A stretch of 64,000 nucleotides of DNA from Thermodesulfobacteriota bacterium (GTDB lineage Bacteria > Desulfobacterota > Desulfarculia > JACQYL01). The notes under the pieces were generated by a model. The model searched no databases, was not told the DNA's origin, and was given only the letters and a program-made list of their open reading frames with translations. The DNA lies in assembly GCA_963675595.2 (NCBI GenBank), contig CAXXLZ010000002.1:832001-896000 (forward strand), read 5' to 3'. Shown here in pieces: positions 35,994 to 51,559 of the stretch. The number at the start of each line of letters is the position of its first letter. The stretch's first letter is position 1. The position numbers and the translations under genes were made by a program.

Positions 35994-36069
35994 GGGCGGG
36001 TAGCTCAGCCGGGAGAGCATCGGCCTTACAAGCCGGGGGTCGCAGGTTCGAATCCTGTCCCGCCTACCA
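35994..36069 (+). tRNA. tRNA-Val (TAC); probable integration site
   Basis: GGGCGGGTAGCTCAGCCGGGAGAGCA-TCGGC-CTTACAA-GCCGG...GGTTCGAATCC...CCTACCA; candidate promoter TTGAAG-N17-TAATAA at 35938-35966. Confidence 0.96.
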
Positions 36070-36135: not shown

Positions 36136-36159
36136 TGGTGTGTCACTTGGTGTGTCACT
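36136..36159. repeat. perfect 12-bp tandem direct repeat, candidate integrase arm-type sites
   Basis: TGGTGTGTCACT x2 between tRNA-Val and the integrase stop codon. Confidence 0.7.
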
Positions 36160-37264
36160 TTTCAATTTCACCACTCGTGACCGCTTCGAAAATCTCCATC
36201 GCCGCCCTTTCCGAAGCCCCCACACTGTGCAGATAAATCTCTGTCGTGGTTCTTTTTTCGTGTCCCAGAATACGTTGAATGCTTCCAATGTTCACGTTGG
36301 CGTTGTCCAGCATCGAAGCGCCGAAATGCCGTAACGCGTGATACCGGAAGTACCTGACACCCGCCTTGGCACAGAGCGTTCCCATGAGCTTTTTGCGATC
36401 CCGGTACGGTCCCGATTTTTTCTCCCCAGTCTTGCTGCTCCAGTAGGTATGCCAAAATACCCAAGGCTTTGACCTATCTCTACGCTCATACCTTCTCAGA
36501 AGCACATCATGAAGCTTCCTGGTCATTGGAACCCTTCGAGGGGTCAAGTGCCCTCCCCTTTTCTTCCTGGTGTAGAGCACCACGACCTTGCTGTTGAAGT
36601 CCACATCCTCCCACGTGAGCCGGTTGATCTCTCCCATTCTCCCCATGGTCTCTTTGATGCAGTAGAGATAATCCTGCTCCTCGGGTCCCGCCGCCACGAG
36701 CACTTTCAGAACATCTTCCTTCGACGGGACATACCGAAGCTTCCTTTCCGCAGGTAAGAATTCGATTCCTGCGGTGGGGTTGTTTGATATCCAACCCTTC
36801 TTGATACCAAAATTAAAAAGCGCCCGAATTTGCCTTAGATACTTGTTCACAGTCTCATTCGATATCTCCGAGATATCCATGAGATAACCCTCAATCATCT
36901 CACGCCGAATCGCGTTTACCTGGAGTGGCCCCCACTCAGCCACCCACTTATGGGCAATATACCTGATGTCTTCGTAATGAGCTGTTGAACAGTAAGCCTT
37001 GAGATAATCCAACCTTCGATTAACGAGGTCCAAGAAGGCCATGCCTGTTGGGGTCGTCTCCGCCGCTATCGCTGCCGGTTCCTCCCGGATTTCGATCCTT
37101 CGTTCTTCTTCGGGATCCGGCAGTCCCTTTTGTATCGCCTCCTTTCTTTTCGATTCCGCTATCCTCGCTTCGTTCTTCGTCGCGTAGAATCCTTTTGCGT
37201 AGCGGTTTTTGTTGAGGTAGAAATTGTACCTCCAGCCTTTGTTTTGAACGAAAAATACGCTCAT
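36155..37264 (-). CDS. int: tyrosine recombinase/integrase
   Basis: TMGRMGEI (R), TRKK (K), YHALRH (HxxR), ILGH...TTEIY (H,Y); N-terminal arm-binding-like KGWRYNF; AAGGAGG before the ATG at 37264. Confidence 0.93.
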   Translation of the reverse strand: MSVFFVQNKGWRYNFYLNKNRYAKGFYATKNEARIAESKRKEAIQKGLPDPEEERRIEIREEPAAIAAETTPTGMAFLDLVNRRLDYLKAYCSTAHYEDIRYIAHKWVAEWGPLQVNAIRREMIEGYLMDISEISNETVNKYLRQIRALFNFGIKKGWISNNPTAGIEFLPAERKLRYVPSKEDVLKVLVAAGPEEQDYLYCIKETMGRMGEINRLTWEDVDFNSKVVVLYTRKKRGGHLTPRRVPMTRKLHDVLLRRYERRDRSKPWVFWHTYWSSKTGEKKSGPYRDRKKLMGTLCAKAGVRYFRYHALRHFGASMLDNANVNIGSIQRILGHEKRTTTEIYLHSVGASERAAMEIFEAVTSGEIEK

Positions 37265-37409
37265 AGAGGTCCTCCTTTGACGGAAAAACAAGAGAACCCC
37301 CAAGCTTCCGACCGCCAAGTTCCTTCCAATGCCGATAAACCCAACTCCGGCTCTTCTTCAGAAACTTGGCGACTTCCTCAGGGGTTTGGATTAGAGGACT
37401 CTCGGACAT
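37020..37409 (-). CDS. excisionase-like HTH DNA-binding protein
   Basis: TPEEVAKFLKKSRSWVY...KLGGSLVF (HTH_17/Xis-like); GAGG RBS; immediately upstream of and overlapping int. Confidence 0.7.
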   Translation of the reverse strand: MSESPLIQTPEEVAKFLKKSRSWVYRHWKELGGRKLGGSLVFPSKEDLYERIFRSKQRLEVQFLPQQKPLRKRILRDEERSEDSGIEKKGGDTKGTAGSRRRTKDRNPGGTGSDSGGDDPNRHGLLGPR

Positions 37410-37486
37410 AAGTCAACACCTCGGACCGGACTCCACCGGCAAACCGGCTTCATTCCGCAAAAACGGCATAACTTGTTGGGATCAGT

Positions 37487-37720
37487 TTACTTTCTCAAGA
37501 GCTTCATCACACCGACAACGATCAACCCAATGACCGCAAGCTTTGCCACCGAAGTGACCGGATCACCGGAATGATGAGCTCCCCGACTTCCAACATCCCA
37601 GGCAGCCTTCATCGCATCACCGAACTCGGACACCGTACCGGCAACAGTCGAGAGAATCGACGGCAGGTACACGGCAAGAAGAACGATCACGATCGCAAGA
37701 AATACGTTCCGCCATTCCAT
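37487..37720 (-). CDS. small two-TM membrane protein
   Basis: Hydrophobic N- and C-terminal helices with a basic tail; AAAGGTG RBS. Confidence 0.7.
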   Translation of the reverse strand: MEWRNVFLAIVIVLLAVYLPSILSTVAGTVSEFGDAMKAAWDVGSRGAHHSGDPVTSVAKLAVIGLIVVGVMKLLRK

Positions 37721-37786
37721 ATGGGATCACCTTTCTTGAAAGGGTTTCATGAAGAAAGTGTCCGCTGAACCTGAAATGTGTTCCTT

Positions 37787-38581
37787 CTAATCCAAACGTC
37801 CCTTCTTTGCCTTGAACTCCGAGATCGACCGAAATTCCAACCTTTCAAGATCAGGGATATTTTTCTTTGCGATATTACGGGCTTTGTTCGTATCCGCCTG
37901 ATCCCTGCAGACAATGTAGAGTTTCCTGACTTTGGAGTTCAGCCCGTCCCGGATATTATCGAGCAGGTTTCCGAAGGAGATCGTGACCTCGAAGCCGTAC
38001 ATTTCTCCTTTGCTGCCTTCGATCCAGGCAAAGAGATCAAAAGAGCCCTTCATTCCGTCGATGAGCGCTTCGAACCAGGTTCGAAAGCCTCTTTCCTCAA
38101 GCCACGATTTCAGGTAATGGCAAAGACATTTATGCTCGAACCCGCCCCTTCCTTCCGGAGGTTTCTTGCCGTATTTCCTGTAAACCCACGGCATGACCTC
38201 GATATAAAGTCCGGGCCTGCCGATGATCTTCACGCTCTGCGCGACCGCCATCTTGTGTTGCTCAAGCCACGCTCTCGCCTTGGTCGCCTTCGCGTCGGTG
38301 AGATGCGTCTCAGATAGAATCTCGCCCCACCTGAGGAATGGGTTTCTGAAAAGCAGCGTCAGGATCGCCCAGGCATTGGCCTCAGGCTCTGATTTCGGTA
38401 TGGGCTGCGGTTCATTTGCTTCGACTTCCGCCGTTTTCTCCCGACCTGCAACTTCCTTTTCCATAGGGTGATACTCGATACCAAGCGGCGGCTTCGGAAG
38501 AATCTCCGCGTACCACTCCGCCATGGCGAGTTCGACTTCGATATCTGTCGGTCTATTCTGCAAAGATGGTTTCTTTTCCAT
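37787..38581 (-). CDS. hypothetical protein, possible winged-helix plus PD-(D/E)XK-like domain
   Basis: GRGGFEH...WFE...SFDLFAW...GFEVTIS spacing resembles a restriction-fold core; directly downstream of the ATPase. Inference only. Confidence 0.5.
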   Translation of the reverse strand: MEKKPSLQNRPTDIEVELAMAEWYAEILPKPPLGIEYHPMEKEVAGREKTAEVEANEPQPIPKSEPEANAWAILTLLFRNPFLRWGEILSETHLTDAKATKARAWLEQHKMAVAQSVKIIGRPGLYIEVMPWVYRKYGKKPPEGRGGFEHKCLCHYLKSWLEERGFRTWFEALIDGMKGSFDLFAWIEGSKGEMYGFEVTISFGNLLDNIRDGLNSKVRKLYIVCRDQADTNKARNIAKKNIPDLERLEFRSISEFKAKKGRLD

Positions 38582-38585
38582 GACC

Positions 38586-39908
38586 TCACCCGAGCCACGG
38601 TACTTCCATCAGGAAGGGTTTATCGAACTTCCGGGTCTTAGCGACAGCGACCCGCCTGTAAGGCATCTTGTAGAGATATTTCTGCTGCTCCTCGTTAAGC
38701 CCGAAAGTCTTGGCCATGCTTTCGTGATCAACGCCGTCAAGGGGAAACCCGATCTTGATCATGCTGTTCGCCTGGAACACGTAATTGAAACTCTTGGCCT
38801 CCTGGCTGCAAAGCCATAGACCGATACCGAACTCTCTGGCTTTTCGCGTGATTTCGTTCAAGCTCGATTCATAGACAAAGGAATCACTGTGATCTCTTCC
38901 CGCCTGCATGAGAGTCGAGGCCTCATCGACGATGAAAAGCGTCCTCAGCTTGTTTCCGCGGTTTCCTTCAGCCATGTTCCTGTTGTAGGCCAGGATAATG
39001 AGAAGAGAGATCAGGAAGTTAGTGACCATATCGGTCCCGAAGTTCGTCGGGAGCTCCAGCACTACGTTCCTTTCAGTGAAGGTCGATATCGGAATCCCTC
39101 TCGGAACATTGAAAGGCTCGCCCATGAGAACGAAAGGCCTTACCCTGCTGATAAGGTTTTCGAAAATGTCCATGTAGCGATACCCGACGTCCTTACGCAG
39201 CTTGAGGTACCGGAGAGCCGCATAAAGACCGTGCATCGTCGGGTAATTCTTCGAGCCCTCGAAGACGCCGTGCCTTTTGAAGAGAGCCGTCAGAGTATCG
39301 AGCAGAATCCCTTCCGACGGCGCACCGAGACCGTTTTCAGCTGCAAAGACCTTGGACCACATGAAGATGAAATCCTTCGGCGAAAGCCACCGCGGGACTT
39401 CAAGAGGATTGAACCGAAACTGCTTCGCGGTGATGATCCCAAGGTTCGGGACAAAATGGAGCAGACGTCTGTAGAAGGTCTTCACATCCGGAATCACCAC
39501 ATTGAAACCGTCCATCCGGCAAAGCTGAAGAAGCGCGTTCAGGATCAACCAGCTCTTACCTGCGCCGGTCGCGCCCAAAGTCATGCAATGCATGGTGAGA
39601 TCATCAGGCTCGATCCTGAAACTGTGTCCGAAGCGATTGATGATCCCGAGACTCAGACTTCCCCGGAAATCCTCCTCCTTAGGCACCGGATGGAACGGGT
39701 AGAGATTCCTGATCTCCTGATCCAGGAAATGCCTTCCGATAAAGCGATCGACTCGATCCTCGTTTTCTTCCATCCAACGCGACACTTCGGACCAGTCACC
39801 GGTTCGGTTGGCAGTCAGGATTCGCCGCCTGAGGAACGGGTTGTCTTTAAGGTCTGTGGAGAAAATGGTCTCAAGCCGTCCTGCAAGTTCCTCATTCTCG
39901 GTGGCCAT
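38586..39908 (-). CDS. HerA/FtsK/VirB4-superfamily ATPase
   Basis: Walker A GATGAGKS, FRFNPL, Walker B LFIVDEA, KAREFGIGLWLCSQ. Confidence 0.85.
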   Translation of the reverse strand: MATENEELAGRLETIFSTDLKDNPFLRRRILTANRTGDWSEVSRWMEENEDRVDRFIGRHFLDQEIRNLYPFHPVPKEEDFRGSLSLGIINRFGHSFRIEPDDLTMHCMTLGATGAGKSWLILNALLQLCRMDGFNVVIPDVKTFYRRLLHFVPNLGIITAKQFRFNPLEVPRWLSPKDFIFMWSKVFAAENGLGAPSEGILLDTLTALFKRHGVFEGSKNYPTMHGLYAALRYLKLRKDVGYRYMDIFENLISRVRPFVLMGEPFNVPRGIPISTFTERNVVLELPTNFGTDMVTNFLISLLIILAYNRNMAEGNRGNKLRTLFIVDEASTLMQAGRDHSDSFVYESSLNEITRKAREFGIGLWLCSQEAKSFNYVFQANSMIKIGFPLDGVDHESMAKTFGLNEEQQKYLYKMPYRRVAVAKTRKFDKPFLMEVPWLG

Positions 39909-39918
39909 TACCCCCCTC

Positions 39919-40257
39919 CTACTTGGGCCCGTGAATCTTCGGGATCACGTCGGGCTTTTCATTTCTCAGGTTCCTGATATCCTTTTTCAGATTCCGGCTG
40001 ACCCGGTCGGCGATCAGGTCGGCTTCGGGTAAAAGCTTTCGCTCCCGAAGTTTATTCACTACCTGATGTTCGAGATCGTACGGGTCTTCGACAGCCTCCG
40101 GCACCTCGAAGACAAGAGTTCCGTCCGGCCATTCCTCGATCAACGGCTCCCGGATTTCATCCAGCAGTTCCATGAGTTCGCCTTCGCTCATGCGATCCAG
40201 GACATCCGGACCTCGGTCCACCGGTTTTTCGACTGTATTCCACCGCATTATTTCCAC
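39919..40257 (-). CDS. hypothetical protein (island backbone)
   Basis: GGAGG RBS; overlaps upstream ORF; same operon. Confidence 0.65.
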   Translation of the reverse strand: MEIMRWNTVEKPVDRGPDVLDRMSEGELMELLDEIREPLIEEWPDGTLVFEVPEAVEDPYDLEHQVVNKLRERKLLPEADLIADRVSRNLKKDIRNLRNEKPDVIPKIHGPK

Positions 40258-40499
40258 CTCCCTTTTCCTTGATTCCTGCGAGAGATTTCATCCCGCAGTC
40301 TGTTCAGGAAATCCGTGCCCTCGACTGTGTCGGCTCCGTCGATGATCTCCCTCATGACCGAACCTTCCGGGTAATCCTTTGCCCGATCACCCTCGAAGTC
40401 CCACAATGCGTCGAGATACAGAGTTTCCAGTTCCCGATCATCAAGGTCCTTTTCAAAATCAGAGAGATCGGTATCGATTCGTTCATAGACATCCTTCAC
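40248..40499 (-). CDS. small acidic hypothetical protein
   Basis: GGAGG RBS; GTGA overlap with upstream ORF. Confidence 0.65.
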   Translation of the reverse strand: MKDVYERIDTDLSDFEKDLDDRELETLYLDALWDFEGDRAKDYPEGSVMREIIDGADTVEGTDFLNRLRDEISRRNQGKGRWK

Positions 40500-40666
40500 G
40501 ATCCGTCCTCCCTTCCCGGCCCGCCATAGGCCGCCTTTTCGAGGGCAGGGAGAATGATGTCGGTGATCAACAGCTCGATATTGTCGAGCAATTCTTCACC
40601 GACCTCATCGAGGATGGCTTCAAGGCGTTGTCTCGTGAGTTTCCTGAACTCGCTTTCCTCTTTCAT
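40496..40666 (-). CDS. small hypothetical protein, 56 aa (not in ORF track)
   Basis: MKEESEFRKLTRQRLEAILDEVGEELLDNIELLITDIILPALEKAAYGGPGREDGS; GGAGG RBS; ATGA and GTGA overlaps on both sides. Confidence 0.7.
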   Translation of the reverse strand: MKEESEFRKLTRQRLEAILDEVGEELLDNIELLITDIILPALEKAAYGGPGREDGS

Positions 40667-41028
40667 CGAAGAAGCCTCCTTCCCGGCTCCGGCAGTTCCT
40701 GCCCGGCCTCGGTATCCTTCTTCAAAAACGGACTGAAGACCTTACGCCAAAAAAGCCTGCTACGAAGACTGCGCGCGCACCTGCGGCAAAGAACAAACCC
40801 GTCGATCAGTTCTCCGGTTTCTCCGGGAGTTACCCACTGATCCCCCGCCCATTCGCATAAAATTTCCTGCCGAACTCTCTCGACAAGCATCCATCCCGGT
40901 GCTATGCTTTCCACGAAATAGCTTCGCATCATGCGAATTCTGCCGTCAGGCAACGGCACGTGATCAATGCGTTCCCTGGCCATTCCCTGTTCCTGTTCAC
41001 CACCGAAAAATTCCGAATCTGCGGACAT
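40663..41028 (-). CDS. hypothetical protein, first gene of the leftward island operon
   Basis: AAAGGAGG RBS before the ATG at 41028; contains CEW...LCRRC. Confidence 0.65.
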   Translation of the reverse strand: MSADSEFFGGEQEQGMARERIDHVPLPDGRIRMMRSYFVESIAPGWMLVERVRQEILCEWAGDQWVTPGETGELIDGFVLCRRCARSLRSRLFWRKVFSPFLKKDTEAGQELPEPGRRLLR

Positions 41029-41096
41029 GACCCAACCTCCTTTCACGGCTGATGTATCGAACTCTTGATTGATTAAGTGTCCTGGAGTGAAGCGGA

Positions 41097-42098
41097 GTGG
41101 CGAAAAAAAGAATCGAATTCAAGAAGCACTGGCTCATGGAATACTTCGATCGGTACTATTTCGTACCCAAGGGCAAGACCAGGGACGAAGTAGTCCGGGA
41201 ACGGGCGAGGCGGTACCGTGAGACCGGGACCGCTGAAGATTTTTCCAAATTCATTGCGATGTTCGGGCTCGATTTGTTCAACAAGGCGAAAAACAAGATG
41301 CAGGGATCGCATGATCCCGACGATGCACTCGACCCGGCGCTCGCGGAGATAGCAAAGATTTGCCGGAGTGGTACCTCCAAGGAATCCGAGGCCGGACAGA
41401 TCGTCTATCCGTTTGAGAATCCGGATACCTGCCAGACCGCATATGCCCGAAAGGTTTTAAGCAATCATATTTCCAAGTATTATGAAGACCTGACCAAGGT
41501 AAAACTGGAGAAAGCGGCGCAAGCGACCGGACAACCGCAAAATCTGAAAGAGTTGAACGAACGCCGGAAAAAGGATCGAGAGGGTTATCTCAAGAAGCAG
41601 CAGGAACTTTCAGAAGCTATCAACCAAAATCAAATAACGGAAGAGGATGGTCAGGAAGATGATCCCGAGGATTCTTTATCAAATTCCAAAAAGATGAGCT
41701 CTCAAGTTCCGGACATTACGAAAGCACTATATTGCATCTTTGATCCTCCTGAAGATATCCTTCTCACGAAAGAGAGGCTGGATGCGATTCGAGATGCAAT
41801 ATCGATAATACTGAATGAGGCCGAAGTTTATTTCGATAGCGTATCCCGAAAACCCTATCATCGGCCGATATTCGAGTGCATAATCTTCTTAGGATTAAGC
41901 TACGAGGAGACGGCCAAGATCGTCTTCCCTACCCAATACGAAGCGAATAGAGTCAAGGCGAGAGATCATACGAAATACATATTCAAATCGCTCTGCTCCA
42001 GCATTGTAAGGAAAGCGTTACGCAGGAACAAAGAGCTCCGCAAATTACTCGACGCAGCAGGGATCAATTATGCAAAGTACCTACCGACTCACAGATAG
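41097..42098 (+). CDS. divergent ECF sigma-factor-like protein
   Basis: sigma2-like EDFSKFIAMFGLDLFNKAKNKMQGSHDPDDAL...AYARKVLSNHISKYY; sigma4-like PEDILLTKERLDAIRDAI...HRPIFECIIFLGLSYEETAKIV; long charged linker. Confidence 0.6.
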   Translation: MAKKRIEFKKHWLMEYFDRYYFVPKGKTRDEVVRERARRYRETGTAEDFSKFIAMFGLDLFNKAKNKMQGSHDPDDALDPALAEIAKICRSGTSKESEAGQIVYPFENPDTCQTAYARKVLSNHISKYYEDLTKVKLEKAAQATGQPQNLKELNERRKKDREGYLKKQQELSEAINQNQITEEDGQEDDPEDSLSNSKKMSSQVPDITKALYCIFDPPEDILLTKERLDAIRDAISIILNEAEVYFDSVSRKPYHRPIFECIIFLGLSYEETAKIVFPTQYEANRVKARDHTKYIFKSLCSSIVRKALRRNKELRKLLDAAGINYAKYLPTHR

Positions 42099-42822
42099 TC
42101 TTTTCGAGACCGAACTCGACAGATACCTCCACGACGAGATGACCGACGAGCAGGAGGAGAGGTTTCTGCGTGCGTGCGAGTCGAACCCAACGTACGAGAA
42201 GAAGGTAACCTATGCGCTCTATTTGAGGAACCTGCCGCTGCATGAGGTTTCCCACCGATACGAGCAACCGCTCGAAAAAGGCTTCGTGTTTGATGACGAA
42301 GACGAAAAACGCAGGGCAAAAGAAGAGATTGAAGAAGCCATTCAGGACGGGTGTTTTGATCTCGCGAAAGAACTCTGCACCGCTGCCCTCGAACTCTGGC
42401 CGTATGATTCGGGCTTCGAGCAGCTGCTCGGGCGGGCGGCTACCGCCGGACAGATCGATAAGTCCTCCGGACCCCGCTCTGAAATCCTCCTGATGTTTGG
42501 AAAAGAAGTCTTCGAACGCTTTACGTTGCCGGAAGCCAAGGATCAAGAAATCGAGTACGAGATTCCTAACCCTTGCGACGTTTCTTTGGCCTACGAAAGC
42601 GGAACGGTGATTTGGAGCGCCGGGTTGTCGCCCGAAACACTGTTCATATACGACCAATCCTCCACACGATCAGGAAAAGCCTCGGATGACAAGGACGCGC
42701 CCGAGACAGAGGAGGGAACGCCGTCTTTTGAGAAGGAACTGCTCGGCGGGAGGATCGTCGTGAGGATTTATAAAGGCCGTGTTTCGGGCAAGCTCAGGAT
42801 TCGCTTGAAGTCATCCGAGTGA
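42070..42822 (+). CDS. putative soluble anti-sigma factor
   Basis: N-terminal LDRYLHDEMTDEQEERFLRACESNP..V resembles an anti-sigma domain without Zn ligands; one TPR-like hairpin; no TM segment; overlaps the sigma gene by 29 nt. Confidence 0.55.
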   Translation: MQSTYRLTDSLFETELDRYLHDEMTDEQEERFLRACESNPTYEKKVTYALYLRNLPLHEVSHRYEQPLEKGFVFDDEDEKRRAKEEIEEAIQDGCFDLAKELCTAALELWPYDSGFEQLLGRAATAGQIDKSSGPRSEILLMFGKEVFERFTLPEAKDQEIEYEIPNPCDVSLAYESGTVIWSAGLSPETLFIYDQSSTRSGKASDDKDAPETEEGTPSFEKELLGGRIVVRIYKGRVSGKLRIRLKSSE

Positions 42823-43006
42823 TACACCAAATAGAGGCCTGACAAGACCACCAGACTCGTATGCAGGGAGCCCGCACGAGTGACGATAACTCGCCCGAAT
42901 CAAAGCCCTGCTCGCATAGGCAACCAATCTGATCTCATGTTTTTGATGTCGCCGAATTTTGGCTCAAATCCAGCAAACCTGCCCCTTTCTGCAACGGACA
43001 AAGCAC

Positions 43007-46000
43007 ATGACCGATGAATTTATCGATAAGTTACAGAAGATTAGCGAGATTGCGGGAGAGTTGTACAACCAAGGGAAGTACCTGGAAGCCGTTCCTCTTG
43101 CACTGGAAGCGTCGGCCTTGATCGGAGAACATTTAGGCGAGGATTCCGAAGAATATGCGGACAGCCTGAACAATGTAGCCTTTCTCTACAAATCCTTGGG
43201 CGTCTATGACAAGGCTGCCCGCTATTATCGTTCGGCGCTGGACATAAAACGACAAGTTCTGGATGAAGACGACCCGGATATCGCAGGAAGCATCCACAAT
43301 CTGGCATCCGTGTACCGAGCGGCCGGCAATTATACAGAGGCGGAGCCCCTACTTCGGGAGGTTCTGGAAATCCGTCGCAAGGTTTTAGGAGAAGAGCACC
43401 CGGAGCTGGCTGCAAGCATGAATAACTTGGCGGCTCTCTATGCAACCACCGGAGAATATGCGAAAGCCGAACCGCTGTACCGCCAAGCCCTGGAGATTCG
43501 AAGAAAGGCCTTAGGAGAGCATCACCCAAAGTTCGCGATCGGCCTGAACAACTTGGCGGAGCTTTACGAGTCCATGGGCAGGTTGGGGGAAGCTGAACCG
43601 TTATACAGGCAGGCGATCCAAATCTGGACAGAAAACTCAGCTGAAGATCACCCACAATTTGCCGTCGGATTGGACAATTTCGCAGGACTCTGTGAAACCC
43701 TGGGAAGGTATGCCGAGGCTGAGCCCCTATACCTGCAGGCTTTGGATATCAGACGCAAAAACTTGGGAGAAAACCATCCGGATTACGCAACCGGTCTCAA
43801 TAACTTGGCAGGGCATTATGAGTCCATGGCCAGGTACGAAGAAGCCGAGCCCCTTTATCAGAGAGCCATAGATATTTGGCGACAGACCATTGGCGAGGAC
43901 CATCCTCAGTTTGCCGCGGGCTTGAACAACCTGGGGTATCTTTACTTTTCATTGGGAAGATACGCAAAAGCGGAGCCTCTTTACCGGCAGGCACTGGAGA
44001 TTCGAAGAAGAATCCTAGGGGAGGATCATCCGGATTTCGCAGTCACCCTGAACAACCTTGCCTCTCTCCAAAACGCCATGGCCAACTATGCCGACGCTAT
44101 TCCTCTATATCGCCAAGCTCTTGACAAGTGGCGAATATCCTTGGGAGAAGAACATTCTCATTTTTCGGCCGCCCTGAATAACTTGGCAATAGCTTACCAA
44201 TTCTTGGGCCTTCACGAGGAAGCGGAGCCTCTTTTCCGACAGGTCTTGGATATTAGAAAGAGAGTTCTGGGTGAAGATCACCCGCAGTATGCGGATGCCC
44301 TGAATAACCTTGGCTTGGTTCATGGGTCCAAGGGAGACTACGCTGAATCTGAACGGCTGTACCGTCAGGCTCTGGAAATCCTGCGAAAGTCCTTACCGGA
44401 AGATCATCCTCGAATGGCGTCCGGTCTGAACAGTCTGGCAATGCTTTACGTCTCCATGAACGACTTCAAGAAAGCGGAGCCACTATTCCGTCAAGCCTTG
44501 GAAATCCGAAGCAAATCCTTCAACGAAAACCACCCGGATGTTGCGGACAGCCTCACCAACCTCGCTTTTCTCTACAGCTCCATGGGCGAGCACGGGAAAG
44601 CTCACCCGCTGTACAGCCGGGGGCTGGAAATTCGGAAGAAAATTTACGGAGAAGAACACCCGGATGTTGCAAACAGCCTGAACAATCTGGCATCCAATCA
44701 TTGTTCAACGGGGGATTACGAAGAAGCAGAGCCGTTCTACCTGCTGTCCCTCGAAATCAGGCGCAAAATCCTGGGAGAAAATCATCCTGATTATGCCGCA
44801 AGCCTGAACAATCTGGGCTTCCTTTATCGATCCATGGGAAGACACGAAGATGCCGAACCGCTTCACAGAAAATCCATAGAGATCCTCCGGAACGCTTTGG
44901 GCGAGTCGCATCCGAATTTTGCGCAAAGTCTGCAGAACCTATCCGTTCTTCTCGCTGCATCGGGCGACATTGATGAAGCATTGCAACATCTCGACCGAGC
45001 CTGCCGAATTCAGGACAAGCTGATCGGCCGGATTTTTTCGTTTTCTTCAGAAAGCCAACGCGCGGCCTATCTCGCCTCCACAAGGAGGAACTTCGACTGC
45101 TTCTTTTCAATGATCTGGAGATATCTCTCCGATTCTCCGAAGGCGCTGCAAAGCGGAATCAATTTGGCTTTTCGCCGGAAAGGCATGCTGTCCGAATCCC
45201 ATGCGGTGCAGCGGGATGCCGTGCTTGGAGGTCGCTATCCGCACCTGAGAGACAAGTTGAATGAGCTGAGAATCGTGCGGAATCAGATTACGCAAAGAAC
45301 GCTCGCGGGTCCCGGCGAAGACGGAATTGAGGAACACCGAAAACTCCTTTCAGATTGGGAATCTCAAACAGAGCGAATCGAGTCCGAGTTGGCCCGTGAG
45401 ATTCCCGAAATGAATCTTGAGGATAGGCTCTCCCTGGCGGATTGCAGTGCCGCGGCCGTGTGCCTGAAGAAAATCACTGCAACCCTGGTGGAATTCGTGA
45501 GATTTGACCCCTTTGATTTCACTGCTGTTCCTGCACGGGGAGAGAAGTCCTGGAAGCCGGCCCGGTACCTTGCATTTGTTCTGGAACCAATGACGCCGGA
45601 CCAAGTACGGATGATAGATTTGGGTGAGGCGGAACCCATTGACCGGCTGACAAATCGATTTCGATCAGCCATTTCAGATGAAGCCGGCAAAGAAGAAACC
45701 TCGGACCAAGTTCCGTCTTTGATCACTTCAACTGGAGAGCAGTTGCGTAAAGCGGTATTCGATCCCCTGATCGAGGCATTGGGGGGTCGGAACCGCGTCG
45801 TTTTCGCTCCGGACGGGGACTTGTCGCGCGTCCCATTCGAAGCTCTTCCCAATGGTCACGGTGGGTTCCTCATAGACGATTACGCGTTCAGCTATGTCGC
45901 AGTGGGACGAGATGTGCTGCGTTTCAGTCGAAAATCCTTTGCCGAACCGTTGCCACCTGTAGTGGTGGCTGATCCGGATTTCAATCTGGGTGGTAAGCCG

Positions 46001-46765
46001 CGGCCGAAAGAAAAGAAGATAACTTTTGATCGCCATTCCCGTGACCTGGATCGATCGGGATTCACCAGATTGCCCGAGACTCGGGATGAAGGAGAGTATT
46101 TAGCATCGAAATTCGGGGTCATACCTTGGCTGGGTGCTTTGGCTTTGGAACGAAGTGTGAAGGCACTTCGATCTCCCAGCGTGCTGCATGTCGCTACGCA
46201 CGGTTTCTTTTATCCGGATCAGAAAGAAGACCCGAACGAGCAGACTCGAGGTATAGAGTCTACTGCGATCGGCAAAATCAGAGGGGTAGGCAGATTTTCG
46301 TTGCCCAACCTGGAAAATCCCTTGCTCCGTTCGGGCTTGGCTCTTGCCGGCGCCAACACTTGGCTCAAGGGACAGGACCCTCCGGAAGAGGCTGAGGACG
46401 GGCTTCTCACAGCTGAAGACGTCACCGGCATGGACCTTTTGGATACCGAACTGGTGGTGCTTTCCGCCTGCGATACCGGACTCGGCGATGTTCATATCGG
46501 CGAAGGGGTTATGGGTCTTCGACGTTCCTTCATCCTTGCAGGGGCCAAAACGCTGGTGATGAGTCTATGGAAGGTACCGAGTGAAGAGACAAAGCTGCTC
46601 ATGAAGGAATTCTACGACAGGCTTCTTGACGGTGAACCACGCGCAGAGGCTCTGCGTCAGGCCCAACTCGCTAGGAAGGCCAAACACCCGAACCCTTATT
46701 ATTGGGGAGCGTTCATCTGCCAAGGTGATCCCTCGCCGATAGAGGCATTCAATCAGCCAAAGTGA
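43007..46765 (+). CDS. TPR-repeat CHAT-domain (caspase-fold) protease
   Basis: About 16 42-aa TPRs (LNNLA..Y...G.Y..AEPLY.QALEI....LG..HP); APDGDLSRVPFEAL; VLHVATHGFF (His); VVLSACDTG (Cys); SLWKV; HPNPYYWGAF; no signal peptide. Confidence 0.95.
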   Translation: MTDEFIDKLQKISEIAGELYNQGKYLEAVPLALEASALIGEHLGEDSEEYADSLNNVAFLYKSLGVYDKAARYYRSALDIKRQVLDEDDPDIAGSIHNLASVYRAAGNYTEAEPLLREVLEIRRKVLGEEHPELAASMNNLAALYATTGEYAKAEPLYRQALEIRRKALGEHHPKFAIGLNNLAELYESMGRLGEAEPLYRQAIQIWTENSAEDHPQFAVGLDNFAGLCETLGRYAEAEPLYLQALDIRRKNLGENHPDYATGLNNLAGHYESMARYEEAEPLYQRAIDIWRQTIGEDHPQFAAGLNNLGYLYFSLGRYAKAEPLYRQALEIRRRILGEDHPDFAVTLNNLASLQNAMANYADAIPLYRQALDKWRISLGEEHSHFSAALNNLAIAYQFLGLHEEAEPLFRQVLDIRKRVLGEDHPQYADALNNLGLVHGSKGDYAESERLYRQALEILRKSLPEDHPRMASGLNSLAMLYVSMNDFKKAEPLFRQALEIRSKSFNENHPDVADSLTNLAFLYSSMGEHGKAHPLYSRGLEIRKKIYGEEHPDVANSLNNLASNHCSTGDYEEAEPFYLLSLEIRRKILGENHPDYAASLNNLGFLYRSMGRHEDAEPLHRKSIEILRNALGESHPNFAQSLQNLSVLLAASGDIDEALQHLDRACRIQDKLIGRIFSFSSESQRAAYLASTRRNFDCFFSMIWRYLSDSPKALQSGINLAFRRKGMLSESHAVQRDAVLGGRYPHLRDKLNELRIVRNQITQRTLAGPGEDGIEEHRKLLSDWESQTERIESELAREIPEMNLEDRLSLADCSAAAVCLKKITATLVEFVRFDPFDFTAVPARGEKSWKPARYLAFVLEPMTPDQVRMIDLGEAEPIDRLTNRFRSAISDEAGKEETSDQVPSLITSTGEQLRKAVFDPLIEALGGRNRVVFAPDGDLSRVPFEALPNGHGGFLIDDYAFSYVAVGRDVLRFSRKSFAEPLPPVVVADPDFNLGGKPRPKEKKITFDRHSRDLDRSGFTRLPETRDEGEYLASKFGVIPWLGALALERSVKALRSPSVLHVATHGFFYPDQKEDPNEQTRGIESTAIGKIRGVGRFSLPNLENPLLRSGLALAGANTWLKGQDPPEEAEDGLLTAEDVTGMDLLDTELVVLSACDTGLGDVHIGEGVMGLRRSFILAGAKTLVMSLWKVPSEETKLLMKEFYDRLLDGEPRAEALRQAQLARKAKHPNPYYWGAFICQGDPSPIEAFNQPK

Positions 46766-46851
46766 GTCAGGAGACTTCTGCCAACTCGGAACCTCGATGA
46801 AGTAAAAGAAACGAATAGGAAGAACGAGTTTCTATTCCCGATGATCCAGCC

Positions 46852-46880
46852 TTGACATCCCTCCTTGATCTTCCTACAAT
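46852..46880 (+). promoter_or_regulatory. near-consensus sigma70 promoter
   Basis: TTGACA-N17-TACAAT, 72 nt upstream of the CDS at 46953. Confidence 0.65.
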
Positions 46881-46952
46881 CAAGCCATAACCATCCTAAA
46901 CTATTGAGTAAAATATAACTTATTATATTTTAGCAATGGGAAGGAGAGTGCC

Positions 46953-47570
46953 ATGTGTCGGTCGTCATGCTCATTGATTGCCCTGTTTATCCTCTTGCTT
47001 TGCCCAAACCAGGGCGTTGCTTTTGACGGTTTCGAGGTTGTCGGCGTCGGGACGGAACCGGCGGCTGCCCTCAGGGACGGTATCAGGCAGATAGGGGAAC
47101 TTTTCGGCGGCGTTGAAATCTTTTCCGAGTCCGAAGCCAATGACTTCGTCATCAAGCACGACCGCATCAAAACCAAGTCGCATTTCACAGGCTCCAAGCT
47201 CGACCGATTCTTTCAGGGATTCACGAACCGGGACGGACTCTGGCATGCGCACTTCGTCTTCCCCGAACAATTCGTAAACGCTGTTCAATCAAGGCCGAGA
47301 GATACCGGCGCTTCGAACCTCTCCATCGATTGGCATGCGATCTCCTACCAAAGCCGCTACGCAGACAGCTTCGGCGAAGTGAAATCGAAATCCTACGCTG
47401 TCCAAATCCCGGCCTGGTACCGGGAACTGATCGATGACAACGTGATGAGGACCGACAAAATAGGCCCCATCGCTGGAACGCTTGCAGGCCTGACCCTCGT
47501 TTCCGCCATCCTCACCATCGCGGGCCTTGCCTGGAGAAATGCCAGAAGAGAAACGCGGTTTCCTCGATAG
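46953..47570 (+). CDS. exported protein with C-terminal TM anchor (LPP20/FlgT-N-like motif)
   Basis: Signal peptide; GVG....AALRDG......GVEIFSESEANDF....DRIKTKS pattern; C-terminal hydrophobic helix followed by RR. Confidence 0.6.
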   Translation: MCRSSCSLIALFILLLCPNQGVAFDGFEVVGVGTEPAAALRDGIRQIGELFGGVEIFSESEANDFVIKHDRIKTKSHFTGSKLDRFFQGFTNRDGLWHAHFVFPEQFVNAVQSRPRDTGASNLSIDWHAISYQSRYADSFGEVKSKSYAVQIPAWYRELIDDNVMRTDKIGPIAGTLAGLTLVSAILTIAGLAWRNARRETRFPR

Positions 47571-47670
47571 CAAAACTGATCGTAGAACGCCCTATATCTC
47601 GCCTTTCCCGGCGGTCATCTCCACCGACATCCGAAAACTATTTATACCCGCGCCTCCCCGGTGATCCGGT

Positions 47671-48843
47671 ATGGCCGGCGGCGCATTCGATGAAGTCTGG
47701 GAACTCCTTTCAATATTCGATATCCCGTACATTTACGACCGCTACGCTGTGGGAGTCGATTTCGTCCTCGCTTTCCTCTTCTTCCTGGGAGTCAGCCAAG
47801 TCACTCTCGGCAAGCGTTTCACAGGCAAAGGCGGGACCCTTCTCACAGTCGCTGTATCGCTTCTCTTGTCTGTAGGATTATCCGTCGCTGAATCACGGCT
47901 CAGTTTCAGCCTCGCTTCCTTCGGCCCGATCGCAATCTTCTTCCTTCTTTTCATCGTTGGCTTGGTGCTGTATCAACTCACCCGGCACCTGGGTTTCCAT
48001 GCGTCGACGGCTTTGTCCCTCGCGTTCGTTATGACCTATTTCTCGATCCAGGCAGTGTCGCCGTCCATCATGGAGTTTGTCCACCAAAGGGCGCCCTGGC
48101 TCAGGACCACGCTCTTCTTAGTCTTCGTGTTCGCAGCTGGAAAGCTCCTCTATTCGATCTTTCACACGATCTTTTCCAGAAGGTCGATCACGTCCCTCGC
48201 ATCCAAGATTGAAGCAAACCCTGAATTCACCCAACAGATTGATCGGGATGTCGAATTCGAGGAACAGGAGAACAAATCCTCGAAGAAACAGGAAAAACTC
48301 TCCAAGAAAAGCCGGGGAAATTCAGAAGAGATCATCCAACGCATCCTATCGATTCTCAGGATTCTTGAAACCGAAGGAGTGACGCCTTTCGCGAGGAAGA
48401 AGATCGCGGACAAATTGGTCTCCATCGCGGATTCGGAACACCAAATCGAAAAGCGAATCAAAAAGCTCGAGTCCGCCAACACCGATCTCAAGCGAGTCGA
48501 TACCGACCATCTCACCCAACTCAGAGACCGGATGGCCAGAGCCCAGGGCAAAGAAAAGGAAAGGCTTCAAAGGGAAATCGAACTGGAGAACGAAAAACTC
48601 CGACTTCACCAAGCAGTCGAAGCCCTCGGCCAACGGATCGCCGCTTTGATGGAGGAGTTCAAGGCTTCTCTCCGATCAGCAGCCGAACTTATCGGGCGGT
48701 CAGCCTATCCTCTGGATGCCCGGCCTTACTTGCAGCGAGCAATCCAGATCGACGAGGAGGTTCGGCGGGAGCTTGACGTGATTCAAGATTTTGAGGAAAA
48801 GATAGGCAAATTCGCGCGCGAGGCGAAGAAAAGCGCCAAGTAA
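47671..48843 (+). CDS. multi-pass membrane protein with long C-terminal coiled coil
   Basis: About five hydrophobic helices in residues 25-165, then an E/K/R-rich heptad-like tail. Confidence 0.75.
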   Translation: MAGGAFDEVWELLSIFDIPYIYDRYAVGVDFVLAFLFFLGVSQVTLGKRFTGKGGTLLTVAVSLLLSVGLSVAESRLSFSLASFGPIAIFFLLFIVGLVLYQLTRHLGFHASTALSLAFVMTYFSIQAVSPSIMEFVHQRAPWLRTTLFLVFVFAAGKLLYSIFHTIFSRRSITSLASKIEANPEFTQQIDRDVEFEEQENKSSKKQEKLSKKSRGNSEEIIQRILSILRILETEGVTPFARKKIADKLVSIADSEHQIEKRIKKLESANTDLKRVDTDHLTQLRDRMARAQGKEKERLQREIELENEKLRLHQAVEALGQRIAALMEEFKASLRSAAELIGRSAYPLDARPYLQRAIQIDEEVRRELDVIQDFEEKIGKFAREAKKSAK

Positions 48844-49642
48844 GGGATGATTTGACCTTTAGGCAATCAGGATATCGAAAGGCATTCAACGTGTACTCAA
48901 GTCATCATTGGAAGCATATACCCATGAATAGACGGGATCTGTCTTTTTTGAATTCAACCTAACCAAATTAAGCAAAATCATGTAAAAGAGTCATTTGCCC
49001 TAAAACTGCTCCGTGTTAAAATAATTTTCCGATTCAAGTATTCTCATGCCTTAGCCTTCGTTATCCCGAAAACCGTGCGATTCCGTGGAAATCGTGCTCA
49101 TGAAGGTAGATTCATTGCCAAACCGGATCCAAGAAATAGGCTTCTCGACGAGAACGGATTTCTGATGGGTCCCGGATTTTAGGAGGGCAAAGACCTTTAC
49201 ATTTTGGATTGCTCGAGGAAGGTCATTTCGATTTCTTTTGTCGACGAGAATTACCAAATCCGGGCATATTCTATCGGTTCGACGTTTCGTTACAGGCAGC
49301 CGAACAGAATCCCGGTATATTCCAACAAATGAAGTTTCGCCCAAAGTGTTAGACACCTGGAAGGGATGGCTCTTTCCTGATCTTTCGAAAAAAAGGGGGG
49401 CCAAATCGATCCCAACGTCTTTCTCGTTCCGGGACGGCGGTCACGGTTTTATCCGACGGGGAGGCGCGTGAACTCCAGCCAAACTGCGTCGAACCCTGTT
49501 GAGTCCGAATCTTGCCTCTTGACTTGTGGCGTTCCGGCTGTTTTATCTGTAACGCATTCAGCTGAGGCCACCTCGTTTTTCCGTTGACCTTGCTGAAAAT
49601 ATCGAAAAGCCCTGTTCGGGCGACAAATTGAACGAGGTCCTC

Positions 49643-51559
49643 ATGAAGCGACTCCTTCCCTTGTTCCTCCTTATGCTGATGCCGGCGGTGTTGGCGCCGT
49701 TCGCCGTTTCGGGCGCCGAACGCGGCATCGGCGTGACCCTTCGCCCGCCACAGGGACAACCCTTCCGCCTGTACGAAGACTCCTACGCCCTGGTCGTGGG
49801 AAACGGCCGCTACACCAAAGGCTGGGACCCGCTGCCCGGTGCCTTGCAGGACGCCGACGACGTGGCCGCGGCCCTGGAACGAAACGGCTTCAGCGTCACT
49901 TTGAAGAAGGACCTGACCAGGAGCGCCTTTCAAGGGGCCTTGAGCGAATTTTCCACGAAGTTCGGCGCGAAGCCGGAGAACCGGCTGCTGTTCTATTATG
50001 CCGGGCACGGATACACGCAGACGCTGTCCACCGGGGAGGAACTGGGCTTCCTGGTCATGACGGACGCGCCGGCCCCGGATCAAGACCCTTACGGTTTTCG
50101 ACTGGCGAGCGTGGACATGCAGTCCATCGTAACCGAGGCCCGCATCATGAACGCCAAACACGTGCTGTTCATGTTCGACAGCTGCTTTTCGGGGTCCATT
50201 TTGAACCTGCGGGAGCGAGTGGTTCCCCAGACCGTGTCGGACAACGTCAAGTATCCGGTTCGGCAGTTTATCACGGCAGGCCGGGCCAATGAACCGGTGC
50301 CCGACCACAGCGTATTCAAGCAGGCGTTTCTGAACCTGCTGGAAGGCAGAGAGCGCGAACCCATACCCGACGGCTACATCACCGGTGAAGAACTGGGCCT
50401 GTTTCTCAAGAACAAGGTTCCGGAGTACAATCCGGCCCAGCATCCGCAGTACGGCAAGATTCGCGATCCCCGGTTGGACCAGGGGGATTTCGTCTTTCTG
50501 GCGCAGCAGGGGGCCGAATGGAGCGAGCCGGAACCTCCGGGTCCCAAGCCGGGCCGGTTGTACGTGCGGACTGTTCCTTCCAACGCCGCGGTGCGGCTCC
50601 TGAACATCGCGCCTCGGTTCAGCCAAGGGATGGAACTGGCCGCCGGGCGGTATCATCTGGAGGTCTCGGCGGAAGGATATGAAGAGCACGAGGAATGGAT
50701 CGACTTGGGCGCCGGGGAGGACCGGGACGTGGAAATCCGGCTGACGGCCGTTCCGAAACAGGCCCCGCCGGCAGCCGATGCAGTACCCGGAAAGACCTGG
50801 ACCGAACCGGTCACCGGCATGGAATTCGTGTATGTGCCCGGCGGCTGTTATGAAATGGGCAGCCCGTCCGGGGAAAAGGATCGGGATTCCGACGAGGGTT
50901 TGGTGCACGAGGTCTGCGTGGACGGGTTCTGGATGGGCAAGACCGAGGTGACCAACGGGCAATTTCGCAAGTTCAAGGGTGGTCACGACAGTGGAGACTA
51001 TCAGGGGAACTCCCTGAACGGTGATGATCAGCCCGTGGTGGAAGTATCCTGGGAGGAGGCCAAGGCCTTTGCCCAGTGGTTGACGCGTCAAGGCGGGGGC
51101 GGCGGGTCCTTCCGGCTGCCCACGGAGGCGGAATGGGAAAACGCCTGCCGGGCCGGGACACGAACGGCGCGGTTCTGGGGGGATGATCCCGACGAGGCGT
51201 GCCGATATGCCAATGTGGCCGACCGGACGGCGAAGCGCAGATGGTCGGATTGGACGATTCACGACTGCGACGACGGCTACGCGGTGACCGCACCGGTGGG
51301 AAGTTTCCGGCCCAATGCTTTCGGAATCTACGATCTGTTGGGGAACGTGTGGGAGTGGTGCGAGGATTGGTATGACAAGGACGCCTACTCCAAACACGCT
51401 CGGAATAATCCTATAGTTGACGCAAGCGGCTCCAACCGCGTCGGCCGCGGCGGCAGCTGGGACCTCGGCCCGAGGTTCGTTCGGTGCGCCAATCGCTACT
51501 TGATTTCGCCCGGCGACGGAAACTTCAACCTCGGGTTCCGCCTCCTCAGGACGGATTAG
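49643..51559 (+). CDS. secreted caspase-family (C14) + PEGA + FGE-sulfatase/C-lectin-fold protein
   Basis: Signal peptide; ALVVGNGRY, YYAGHG (His), FDSCFSG (Cys); TEVTNGQF, FRLPTEAEWE, GNVWEW, RVGRGGSW...GFRL. Confidence 0.92.
   Translation: MKRLLPLFLLMLMPAVLAPFAVSGAERGIGVTLRPPQGQPFRLYEDSYALVVGNGRYTKGWDPLPGALQDADDVAAALERNGFSVTLKKDLTRSAFQGALSEFSTKFGAKPENRLLFYYAGHGYTQTLSTGEELGFLVMTDAPAPDQDPYGFRLASVDMQSIVTEARIMNAKHVLFMFDSCFSGSILNLRERVVPQTVSDNVKYPVRQFITAGRANEPVPDHSVFKQAFLNLLEGREREPIPDGYITGEELGLFLKNKVPEYNPAQHPQYGKIRDPRLDQGDFVFLAQQGAEWSEPEPPGPKPGRLYVRTVPSNAAVRLLNIAPRFSQGMELAAGRYHLEVSAEGYEEHEEWIDLGAGEDRDVEIRLTAVPKQAPPAADAVPGKTWTEPVTGMEFVYVPGGCYEMGSPSGEKDRDSDEGLVHEVCVDGFWMGKTEVTNGQFRKFKGGHDSGDYQGNSLNGDDQPVVEVSWEEAKAFAQWLTRQGGGGGSFRLPTEAEWENACRAGTRTARFWGDDPDEACRYANVADRTAKRRWSDWTIHDCDDGYAVTAPVGSFRPNAFGIYDLLGNVWEWCEDWYDKDAYSKHARNNPIVDASGSNRVGRGGSWDLGPRFVRCANRYLISPGDGNFNLGFRLLRTD

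Follow-up and report, generated by a model that had tools for sequence, protein, structure and literature searches.

A possible CRISPR-independent sigma switch gated by a TPR-CHAT protease on an integrative element of a Thermodesulfobacteriota bacterium

Can a tetratricopeptide-repeat (TPR) CHAT protease control a sigma factor where no CRISPR system lies beside it? The question is raised by three adjacent genes at 41097..46765 of a 64,000-nucleotide stretch of DNA (the window) from a Thermodesulfobacteriota bacterium, contig CAXXLZ010000002.1, positions 832,001 to 896,000 (C2:832001-896000 in our numbering, with the trio at C2:873-879 kb). A preliminary description of this DNA had proposed that a divergent sigma-like protein, a soluble anti-sigma-like protein and a TPR-CHAT protease form a stand-alone switch on a mobile island. 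Our analysis leads us to give an even chance to the reading that the trio is a cytoplasmic, CRISPR-independent, protease-gated sigma switch, located on a tRNA-Val integrative element in an accessory block of 9.5 kb.

All three open reading frames (ORFs) lie on the + strand. P0001 (41097..42098), a sigma-70-family-like orphan of 333 aa, starts with GTG, has a GGAG 9 nt upstream and is immediately preceded by a TGA stop. P0002 (42070..42822), its soluble anti-sigma-like partner of 250 aa, starts with ATG behind a GGGA 7 nt upstream and overlaps the P0001 ORF by 29 nt. P0003 (42959..46765) encodes a cytoplasmic TPR-CHAT putative protease of 1268 aa if read from a TTG start. Its true start is more likely the ATG at 43007, because the alignment with the homologue at a related locus, L001, begins at that Met and because a 1-nt insertion at 42985 in a near relative would break the TTG extension. 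No + strand terminator-like site was predicted between 42823 and 43007. The highest 19-residue Kyte-Doolittle means were 1.16 for P0001, 0.67 for P0002 and 1.38 for P0003, and none of the proteins has a transmembrane (TM)-like segment. The co-orientation of the genes, the overlap and the lack of a TM helix in the 250-aa protein, all previously described, are thus borne out.

In P0003, Pfam TPR_10 matches fall in 16 stretches, and the array of 16 KLC/NPHP3-type TPRs extends over about 43163..45028. The CHAT domain follows at residues 925-1257 (45731..46729; E 1.1e-67, 229 bits) and covers profile positions 3-289 of 289. Its dyad consists of His1081 in VATHG (46199..46201) and Cys1171 in SACDTG (46469..46471), both conserved in all 10 of the aligned CHAT homologues. 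No TM or signal-like segment was found. Judged from its sequence, P0003 is a cytoplasmic TPR-CHAT putative protease with an intact dyad, and the preliminary description, which had counted about 16 TPRs, was accurate in this respect. Only TPR families and CHAT were found by Pfam in P0003, with no SAVED, CARF or Lon-type domain, and a phmmer search of its C-terminal 571 aa against Protein Data Bank (PDB) sequences gave no match at E<=1.

For P0001 it is the predicted fold that points to a sigma factor. In the AlphaFold2 (AF2) model (predicted local distance difference test, pLDDT, 70.9), a sigma2-like domain (residues 25-150; 41169..41546) and a sigma4-like domain (residues 233-312; 41793..42032) are joined by a charged, disordered linker of ~75 residues, around positions 150-225, which ordinary extracytoplasmic function (ECF) sigmas do not have. 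VIA-align matched the sigma2-like domain to sigmaE region 2 (2mao; Z 10.3, root-mean-square deviation (rmsd) 3.6, 104/106 residues), SigW (5wuq; Z 10.3, rmsd 2.7, 94 aligned) and SigC sigma2 (2o7g; Z 10.3, rmsd 2.7, 88/89), and the sigma4-like domain to SigF sigma4 (8jzt; Z 8.1, rmsd 1.6, 57/57), sigmaE region 4 on DNA (2h27; Z 7.8, rmsd 3.1, 69/69) and SigR region 4 (5fgm; Z 7.0, rmsd 2.3, 65/65), to be read with the program's own note, itself a point against the assignment, that helical models can attain Z 8-10 by chance. Foldseek returned no row at E<=0.001 (best E 0.016), and the rows listed were, by entry title, nearly all sigma factors or RNA polymerase holoenzymes. As each of two distinct parts of the model pairs with a different domain of the sigma family, in the expected order and along entire target domains, P0001 is by predicted fold an extremely divergent sigma-70-family protein of sigma2-linker-sigma4 architecture. 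It is also rare: two relatives of 50-51% identity were found among 5.8 billion clusters, a profile search of 1.84 billion representatives returned its own cluster only, and its alignment found no relative in genome contigs or viral contigs. BLASTP gave no match between P0001 and P0013.

The AF2 model of P0002 (pLDDT 66.7) comprises three N-terminal helices (residues 9-52), a disordered stretch (54-74), TPR-like helices (76-131; 42295..42462) and a beta domain (137-246; 42478..42807) that contains a disordered acidic loop (194-218). The TPR-like unit is recognisable by structure (Z 10.0, rmsd 1.2 over 58 residues) and by profile comparison with consensus TPR (E 1.1e-6). No Pfam family at E<=1 and no NCBIfam, PADLOC or PHROG match was obtained for P0002. 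The Atlas search gave scores of at most 0.79, to TPR proteins and to one zf-HC2/TPR cluster, which we take as a lead only.

We then have the predicted complex of the two proteins. For P0001 with P0002, the interface score ipSAE had a median of 0.66 (runs 0.55, 0.66 and 0.84), against 0.00 for the best of three controls; the mark applied is one that was reached by 116 of 157 solved complexes and by 2 of 215 mismatched pairs. The runs had at least 53% of contacts in common, with a partner pLDDT of at least 71. The contacts connect P0002 residues 13-57 and 71-109 with P0001 residues 58-67 and 112-122 in sigma2 and 252-309 in sigma4. As predicted, the N-terminal helices of P0002 would clamp between sigma2 and sigma4, which is the classical anti-sigma arrangement. 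The sigma:anti-sigma complex suggested by the preliminary description has therefore passed its controls in prediction.

Related loci indicate how the pair and the protease gene are connected. L001 is a contig of a Syntrophobacteraceae metagenome-assembled genome (MAG), and it lies outside the class of the window's genome because a search of the class with the partner alignment matched 1 of 95 genomes, namely the window's own (G000). The homologous block at L001 shares 49-81% protein identity with that of the window (in the element backbone, integrase 79%, 264-aa protein 68%, ATPase 81% and 127-aa protein 72%). In the place of P0001 it has an unrelated sigma of 200 aa (PHROG 1740, E 2e-8; Sigma70_r4_2, E 1.4e-5 and 25.0 bits, just below the cut-off of 25.7 bits; 59.7% in hhalign against ECF sigmas). 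This sigma gene is followed by the gene for P0008, a P0002 homologue, and by a TPR gene that is 60% identical to the start of P0003 and is ended by the contig edge; elsewhere in the MAG only a 90-residue CHAT fragment (48% identity) was found, on another small contig. P0008 and P0002 are identical at 93 of 190 C-terminal positions but at only 10 of 45 N-terminal ones, and P0007 and P0009 at 143 of 179 C-terminal positions but at only 17 of 56 N-terminal ones, so that the three relatives of P0002 are mosaic in their identity. From these alignments, the N-terminal module of the partner appears to vary with the sigma while the C-terminal module stays with the TPR-CHAT gene, a pattern that would be expected of a two-faced adaptor between sigma and protease.

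Two further loci carry other genes in the same slot. At L003, in the same genome as the window, the first slot gene encodes a 303-aa sigma (PHROG 1740, E 1.3e-11; Sigma70_r4_2, 25.4 bits, again just under the cut-off). The second encodes P0014, a soluble protein of 221 aa with no Pfam family and with an HxxxCxxC motif seen by eye (AIHLLECNEC), and the third encodes P0010, an orphan of 541 aa with HEFVH. P0010 found no homologue but itself in the protein collection, and in the Atlas only unnamed clusters at low recognition. L018 (genome G319) has the best relative of the ATPase in the phylum sample. There, a single ORF of 324 aa (L018:10544-11518, +) combines sigma2-like and sigma4-like motifs, recognised by eye, with a C-terminal zf-HC2 domain (Pfam E 6.1e-6, residues 268-298); it adjoins a HerA-like ATPase fused to a 264-aa-type domain, and the next protein after it, of 503 aa, has HEYRH. 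With the sigma fused to its own inhibitor, some release step would be needed. No matches were found by phmmer among the three sigma types or between them and 18 neighbours of CHAT homologues. Comparison of the partner alignment with P0014 by hhalign gave a probability of 2.3%; a resemblance between P0014 and P0008 in an acidic-loop motif was noticed by eye and set aside, as it has no statistical support. A closer relative was found on a contig of run X3, from a different study, which matches 41103-48764 at ~95% DNA identity with 362 substitutions and six indels; the indels are all intergenic or compensating, and the whole trio is retained.

A scheme can be drawn from these observations. The N-terminal and first TPR-like helices of P0002, placed between sigma2 and sigma4, would hold P0001 inactive, and the TPR-CHAT protein would recognise the conserved C-terminal half of P0002, that is, the TPR unit and the beta domain with its acidic loop. 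A signal read by the 16-TPR array, for which a protein of a phage or other invader is one option, would activate the His1081/Cys1171 site. P0002 would then be cut, its disordered segments 54-74 and 194-218 being the candidate sites, and the remnant lost, and the freed P0001 would direct RNA polymerase to its promoters, which probably lie within the element, at the divergent HerA-like ATPase operon, the integrase gene or its own operon. We favour this protease-gated switch because of the sigma fold, the controlled complex prediction, the 29-nt overlap and the lack of a predicted terminator before the CHAT gene, and also because of the modular co-variation, the occupation of the same slot at L003 and L018, the retention of the trio in the ~95% relative and the existence of precedents.

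The mobile setting described in the preliminary account is real. A tRNA-Val (TAC) gene predicted by ARAGORN (35994..36069, +) is the likely integration site; it is preceded by tig, clpP, clpX and lon, and the gene of a tyrosine integrase (36155..37318, -; Pfam Phage_integrase E 2.5e-20, PHROG 1 integrase E 4.8e-49) starts 86 nt downstream of it. GC content drops to 0.51-0.53 over 36-50 kb, against 0.59 and 0.62 in the flanks, and related copies occur elsewhere in the genome, where integrase paralogues have 77%, 69% and 50% identity. The gene order runs from the integrase gene through the genes of the 264-aa protein and the ATPase and two small ORFs, all on the - strand, to the trio and then to a 205-aa and a 390-aa gene on the + strand. 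The 264-aa protein (37787..38581, -), of unassigned function, has no match in Pfam, NCBIfam, PADLOC or PHROG and travels with the ATPase: it is 36% identical to its counterpart at L003, and this type of domain is fused to the ATPase at L003 and L018 in ORFs of 706 aa and 727 aa. The ATPase itself (38586..39908, -; 440 aa) is a HerA/FtsK-like P-loop protein (Pfam DUF87 E 1.1e-5; PADLOC HerA E 3.9e-11 and mad8 E 1.7e-10), for which a sample of 400 other genomes of the phylum contained homologues in 5; neither this protein nor the partner alignment found a match in viral contigs. The small ORFs are a conserved one of 112 aa (39919..40257, -; 29% over 70 aa by tblastx against L003, in the same frame) and one of 127 aa (40663..41046, -), which has no family match in Pfam or PHROG and is 32% identical over 101 aa to its L003 counterpart. 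The 127-aa gene and the sigma gene point away from each other, their start codons 50 nt apart.

Behind the trio, a sigma-70-like promoter match (11/12) at 46852..46880 stands ahead of the 205-aa gene (46953..47570, +), whose product has a signal-peptide-like N-terminus and a C-terminal TM segment (Kyte-Doolittle 1.93). The 390-aa gene (47671..48843, +) encodes a membrane protein with a long charged C-terminal half (Kyte-Doolittle 2.56). Both belong to the element backbone: the 205-aa gene has four copies or part-copies in the window's genome and the 390-aa gene four copies of 88-100% identity, with a relative of 28% identity at L018. Besides that in the window, the integrase/205/390 backbone occurs in three further copies in the genome (L005, C1:1402592-1405705; L006, C2:4232028-4234820; L003, C2:1699025-1712013). 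Two of them join 37017-37788 straight to 47304-49204 and thus lack the 9.5-kb block with the ATPase genes and the trio (37788..47304); in these copies the 205-aa gene is reduced to its last 88-95 residues. The L003 copy has a diverged version of the block. A joint of 37786 to 47304, with 34 extra letters, on contigs of runs X1 and X5 was considered as evidence of excision and rejected, because it matches the short paralogous copies. The right boundary of the element can be placed only roughly, at 48.8-49.3 kb, where the paralogous copies cease to match. No second copy of the 25-nt 3' end of tRNA-Val was found in the window at up to three mismatches, and neither a direct-repeat scan nor local alignment to the candidate right end revealed an attachment site.

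Several results weigh against the proposed switch. For the sigma, P0001 matched no Pfam family at E<=1 and nothing in NCBIfam, PADLOC or PHROG, hhalign against five ECF sigmas of the same genome gave a probability of 3.7%, and the P0001 profile found no sigma among PDB sequences. The ECF-sigma-like character claimed in the preliminary description is thus upheld by the predicted sigma2 and sigma4 folds and by no sequence model. The alignments are thin, as only three sigma and four partner sequences exist. P0002 has no HxxxCxxC zinc motif or zf-HC2 domain, Foldseek found nothing meaningful for it, and no fold or family search yielded an anti-sigma domain, although the VIA-align list was filled by TPR matches to residues 72-136 and barely probed the N-terminal helices. 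The anti-sigma-like N-terminus described earlier is accordingly backed by the predicted contacts with sigma2 and sigma4, and not by a zinc motif or by recognition of fold or family. The complex prediction may have passed in part because the model remembers solved sigma/anti-sigma complexes. At the sister loci, the motif alone is the ground for calling the two HExxH proteins putative proteases, and they show no detectable similarity to each other (no BLASTP similarity between P0010 and the 503-aa protein of L018 at E<0.1). There is also no shared promoter motif signal in the element by k-mer search: eight upstream regions had 18 common 11-mers with up to one mismatch, and 30 shuffles gave a mean of 10.5 and a maximum of 22.

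The neighbourhoods of homologues also speak against a strict trio. At L002, the gene immediately before that of a P0002 homologue encodes an unrelated integrase (25% identity) and not a sigma, and the contig ends just past the homologue. Among 400 other genomes of a phylum sample, 8 have homologues with 36-40% identity over the full length of the linker-plus-CHAT half of P0003, and a ninth has a fragment only, 63% identical over 142 residues. In the seven of these nine loci with visible upstream DNA, a sigma gene and a zf-HC2 gene stand upstream of the CHAT gene only once, at L012 of genome G146; the other six have PIN, Hypoth_Ymh, transporter/HD or small secreted Gly/His-rich neighbours. The second TPR-CHAT gene of the window's genome (L004) has no sigma neighbour either. 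At L012:5718-12848 (-), genes for a 298-aa sigma and a 350-aa zf-HC2 protein are accompanied by those for an M48-TPR protein (595 aa), a CHAT protein (712 aa) and a trypsin-PDZ protein (355 aa), that is, by three putative proteases behind one sigma/anti-sigma pair. From the variety of neighbours, we take this CHAT clade to be a portable module with a wide choice of partners. The synteny of the trio, which the preliminary description had proposed to check, is therefore partial: the gene order is kept at L001, with the sigma and the partner's N-terminus replaced, and the whole trio in the ~95% relative, but a sigma gene is missing before the partner at L002 and from all but one of the seven CHAT loci.

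The main alternative, less likely in our view than the switch, is that the sigma and anti-sigma serve to regulate the element itself, for example its excision, its transfer or the ATPase operon, and that the pair is released in some other way, such as by housekeeping proteases or partner switching, while the CHAT protein is independent cargo, a caspase-like defence or cell-death effector with other substrates. The six sigma-free CHAT loci, mostly of defence-like surroundings, agree with it. So does the variation of the third slot gene, which encodes TPR-CHAT in the window and at L001 and unrelated proteins of 541 aa and 503 aa at L003 and L018, with sigma and anti-sigma always there; and the CHAT gene, 184 nt from the pair, could have its own promoter. 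However, it is hard to explain in this way why the partner's C-terminal half and the TPR gene have been kept together when the sigma and the N-terminal part of the partner have been exchanged. Moreover, no + strand terminator is predicted between the pair and the CHAT gene, and members of the P0002 family occur at no other kind of locus.

The protease-gated switch could also be extended to the block as a whole, although we regard this extension as doubtful. The block at 37788..47304 would then be an undescribed, self-contained immune or escape module of a family of integrative elements, in which the cytoplasmic sensor-protease (TPR-CHAT, swapped for HExxH proteins in sister elements) reads an invader protein directly, without CRISPR or a nucleotide second messenger. 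It would cut the mosaic anti-sigma, whose N-terminal module fits an orphan sigma private to the element, and the freed sigma would switch on the HerA-like ATPase/264-aa operon, either as the effector or to mobilise the element.

It is rather unlikely that P0002 is a substrate, effector or adaptor and not an inhibitor, in which case the CHAT protease would free a toxic or signalling beta domain or cut the sigma itself, or the sigma-like protein would be a PhyR-like decoy. In the P0002 family it is the C-terminal TPR and beta region that is most conserved, not the sigma-binding N-terminus, and there are parallels, according to bioRxiv 10.1101/2023.06.23.546230, in PCaspase, which cuts a sigma directly, and in Csx30, called there a hypothesised toxin. 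A decoy would also fit the linker of ~75 residues, atypical for ECF sigmas, and the occurrence of a PhyR sigma-like domain among the fold matches of P0001 (3t0y, Z 5.9). On the other hand, the predicted interface is a classical one, with the partner between sigma2 and sigma4 and both buried, P0001 has no receiver or other regulatory domain, and neither a toxin-like family nor a toxin-like fold turned up for the beta domain, which the fold search barely probed. Finally, it is very improbable that the block does nothing at present and is just silent or decaying cargo: two of the four element copies in the genome do lack it, but all its ORFs are intact, the dyad is conserved, the ~95% relative has only intergenic or compensating indels across 7.7 kb, and a homologous block persists in another class.

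The absence of CRISPR from the window agrees with what the preliminary description had reported. No cas gene or CRISPR array was found in the window by a repeat scan and by PADLOC scans of 24 of its proteins, in which the CRISPR-linked rows were only weak (E 0.0021 or worse). In the genome as a whole, the repeat scan found arrays only at C1:954773 and C2:4377554, cas1 was found only beside these two arrays, at C1:956 kb and C2:4384 kb, and RAMP genes were found only at C1:962-965 kb, in open frames of ordinary size (250 and 532 aa). The locus at C1:954773-964811, with an array of about 10 repeats, cas1 (C1:956303-957100) and the two RAMP genes, looks type III-like; the second TPR-CHAT gene of the genome (C1:878-881 kb) is ~74 kb away.

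The nearest known system is type III-E Craspase, in which, according to the account in PMC10028731, the TPR-CHAT protease Csx29 cleaves Csx30, the inhibitor of CASP-sigma, outside the part that binds the sigma; what is left of Csx30 is then presumed to be degraded. As described there, the likeness is that a cytoplasmic TPR-CHAT protein has as its neighbour a soluble one which binds and inhibits an ECF-like sigma through its N-terminal domain, the binding being predicted here. In contrast to Craspase, there is no Cas7-11/gRAMP gene, CRISPR RNA (crRNA) or array near the trio, and P0001 is far more divergent than CASP-sigma, for which the same account gives an HHpred probability of 100% as an ECF sigma. 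With no Cas7-11/gRAMP nearby and with 16 KLC/NPHP3-type TPRs, activation cannot be RNA-guided through a Cas partner. Searches of PDB chains with the CHAT half (phmmer) and with the partner profile gave no Csx29, Csx30 or Csx31 match, in a copy whose content of Csx chains is unverified.

Other systems share parts of the logic. In a type III-B CRISPR system, bioRxiv 10.1101/2023.06.23.546230 relates that CalpL cleaves CalpT and releases CalpS, the same three-part order of a signal-activated protease, a cut soluble anti-sigma and a freed sigma that we propose here. As characterised in that account, CalpL is a Lon-SAVED fusion activated by cyclic oligoadenylate, whereas P0003 is a TPR-CHAT protein with no SAVED or CARF domain and no linked cyclase. 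The same source describes a SAVED-CHAT/PCaspase/PCc-sigma/PCi locus of Haliangium ochraceum, where CHAT and caspase-family proteases occur with a sigma in an immune locus with a presumed transcriptional response; as reported there, it differs in being a cyclic triadenylate (cA3)-triggered cascade of two proteases, in which the sigma itself is cleaved and the small partner inhibits the protease, not the sigma. DdvA of Myxococcus xanthus is, following PMC11506125, an anti-sigma that itself carries a TPR-CHAT domain; it holds the ECF-type sigma DdvS, CHAT cleavage has been proposed as the release, and the regulon is antiviral. However, DdvA is presented there as one transmembrane protein with a zinc-binding cytoplasmic domain and a periplasmic, dimeric TPR-CHAT part with an incomplete active site, and release needs RseP, whereas the trio consists of separate, soluble, cytoplasmic parts with no zinc motif and no TM segment. 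Caspase/ECF-sigma/TPR neighbourhoods have been noted computationally and read as a proteolytic switch with transcriptional output in PMC8195603; as outlined in that source, they have recognisable ECF sigmas and mostly exported or membrane-tethered parts, unlike the fold-only orphan sigma and the mosaic soluble partner found here in a swappable slot of an integrative element. The trio belongs neither to Craspase nor to the CalpL/T/S or DdvA systems, since it lacks Cas7-11 and an array, a SAVED or Lon domain, a TM segment and a fused polypeptide. A stand-alone soluble TPR-CHAT/anti-sigma/sigma trio was not found in the excerpted literature that joins CHAT or caspase-like proteases with sigma/anti-sigma factors.

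Several genes outside the trio deserve mention. At three of the CHAT-homologue loci, a gene for a small secreted protein (L013:8970-9491, L015:11252-11926 and L016:9025-9885) precedes a giant CHAT homologue of 1632-1705 aa. The secreted proteins have a common core, LILVSAVKLLDD..GIVKPGQDEK, and a Gly/His/Cys-rich tail, and look like a different, conserved family of CHAT partners. At L004, upstream of an OmpA-TPR gene and the TPR-CHAT gene, there are genes for a BrxC/BrxD-family ATPase (L004:12978-14303, -; E 6.4e-154) and a DEAD-box helicase (L004:10789-12969, -). Past the element in the window, where GC is 0.61-0.62, two paralogues (49628..51559 and 51711..53849, +) each combine Peptidase_C14, PEGA and FGE-sulfatase domains. 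A third such gene (L004:4381-6165) adjoins the L004 TPR-CHAT gene, and another paralogue lies near C2:4726 kb. Farther on, 54971..63998 (+) is probably a MADS/Mok-like defence locus: a P-loop protein of 1380 aa with NERD and protein-kinase domains (PADLOC MkoA, mad6 and PD-T4-6) is followed by a MAD7-like protein (NCBIfam antiphage_MADS7 E 3.5e-45, below the cut-off) and by an ORF of more than 1023 aa that has no family match and runs off the window.

Bacterial immunity is increasingly seen to act through a protease that releases a sigma, as in Craspase, CalpL/T/S and DdvA. To our knowledge, the trigger comes via CRISPR, a cyclic nucleotide or the envelope in all studied cases. Should the proposed switch be wrong, what remains is still a mobile cassette of a rare kind. 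The locus shows a sigma-family protein so divergent that only structure prediction detects it, a natural domain swap that maps the two halves of an anti-sigma to sigma and protease, respectively, and a slot of an integrative element that holds alternative versions of what appears to be the same circuit. If the switch is real, the trio would be a minimal, stand-alone and soluble one in which the protease itself must be the sensor, and with only three proteins it would be a simple system in which to search for what switches on a bacterial TPR-CHAT protease.

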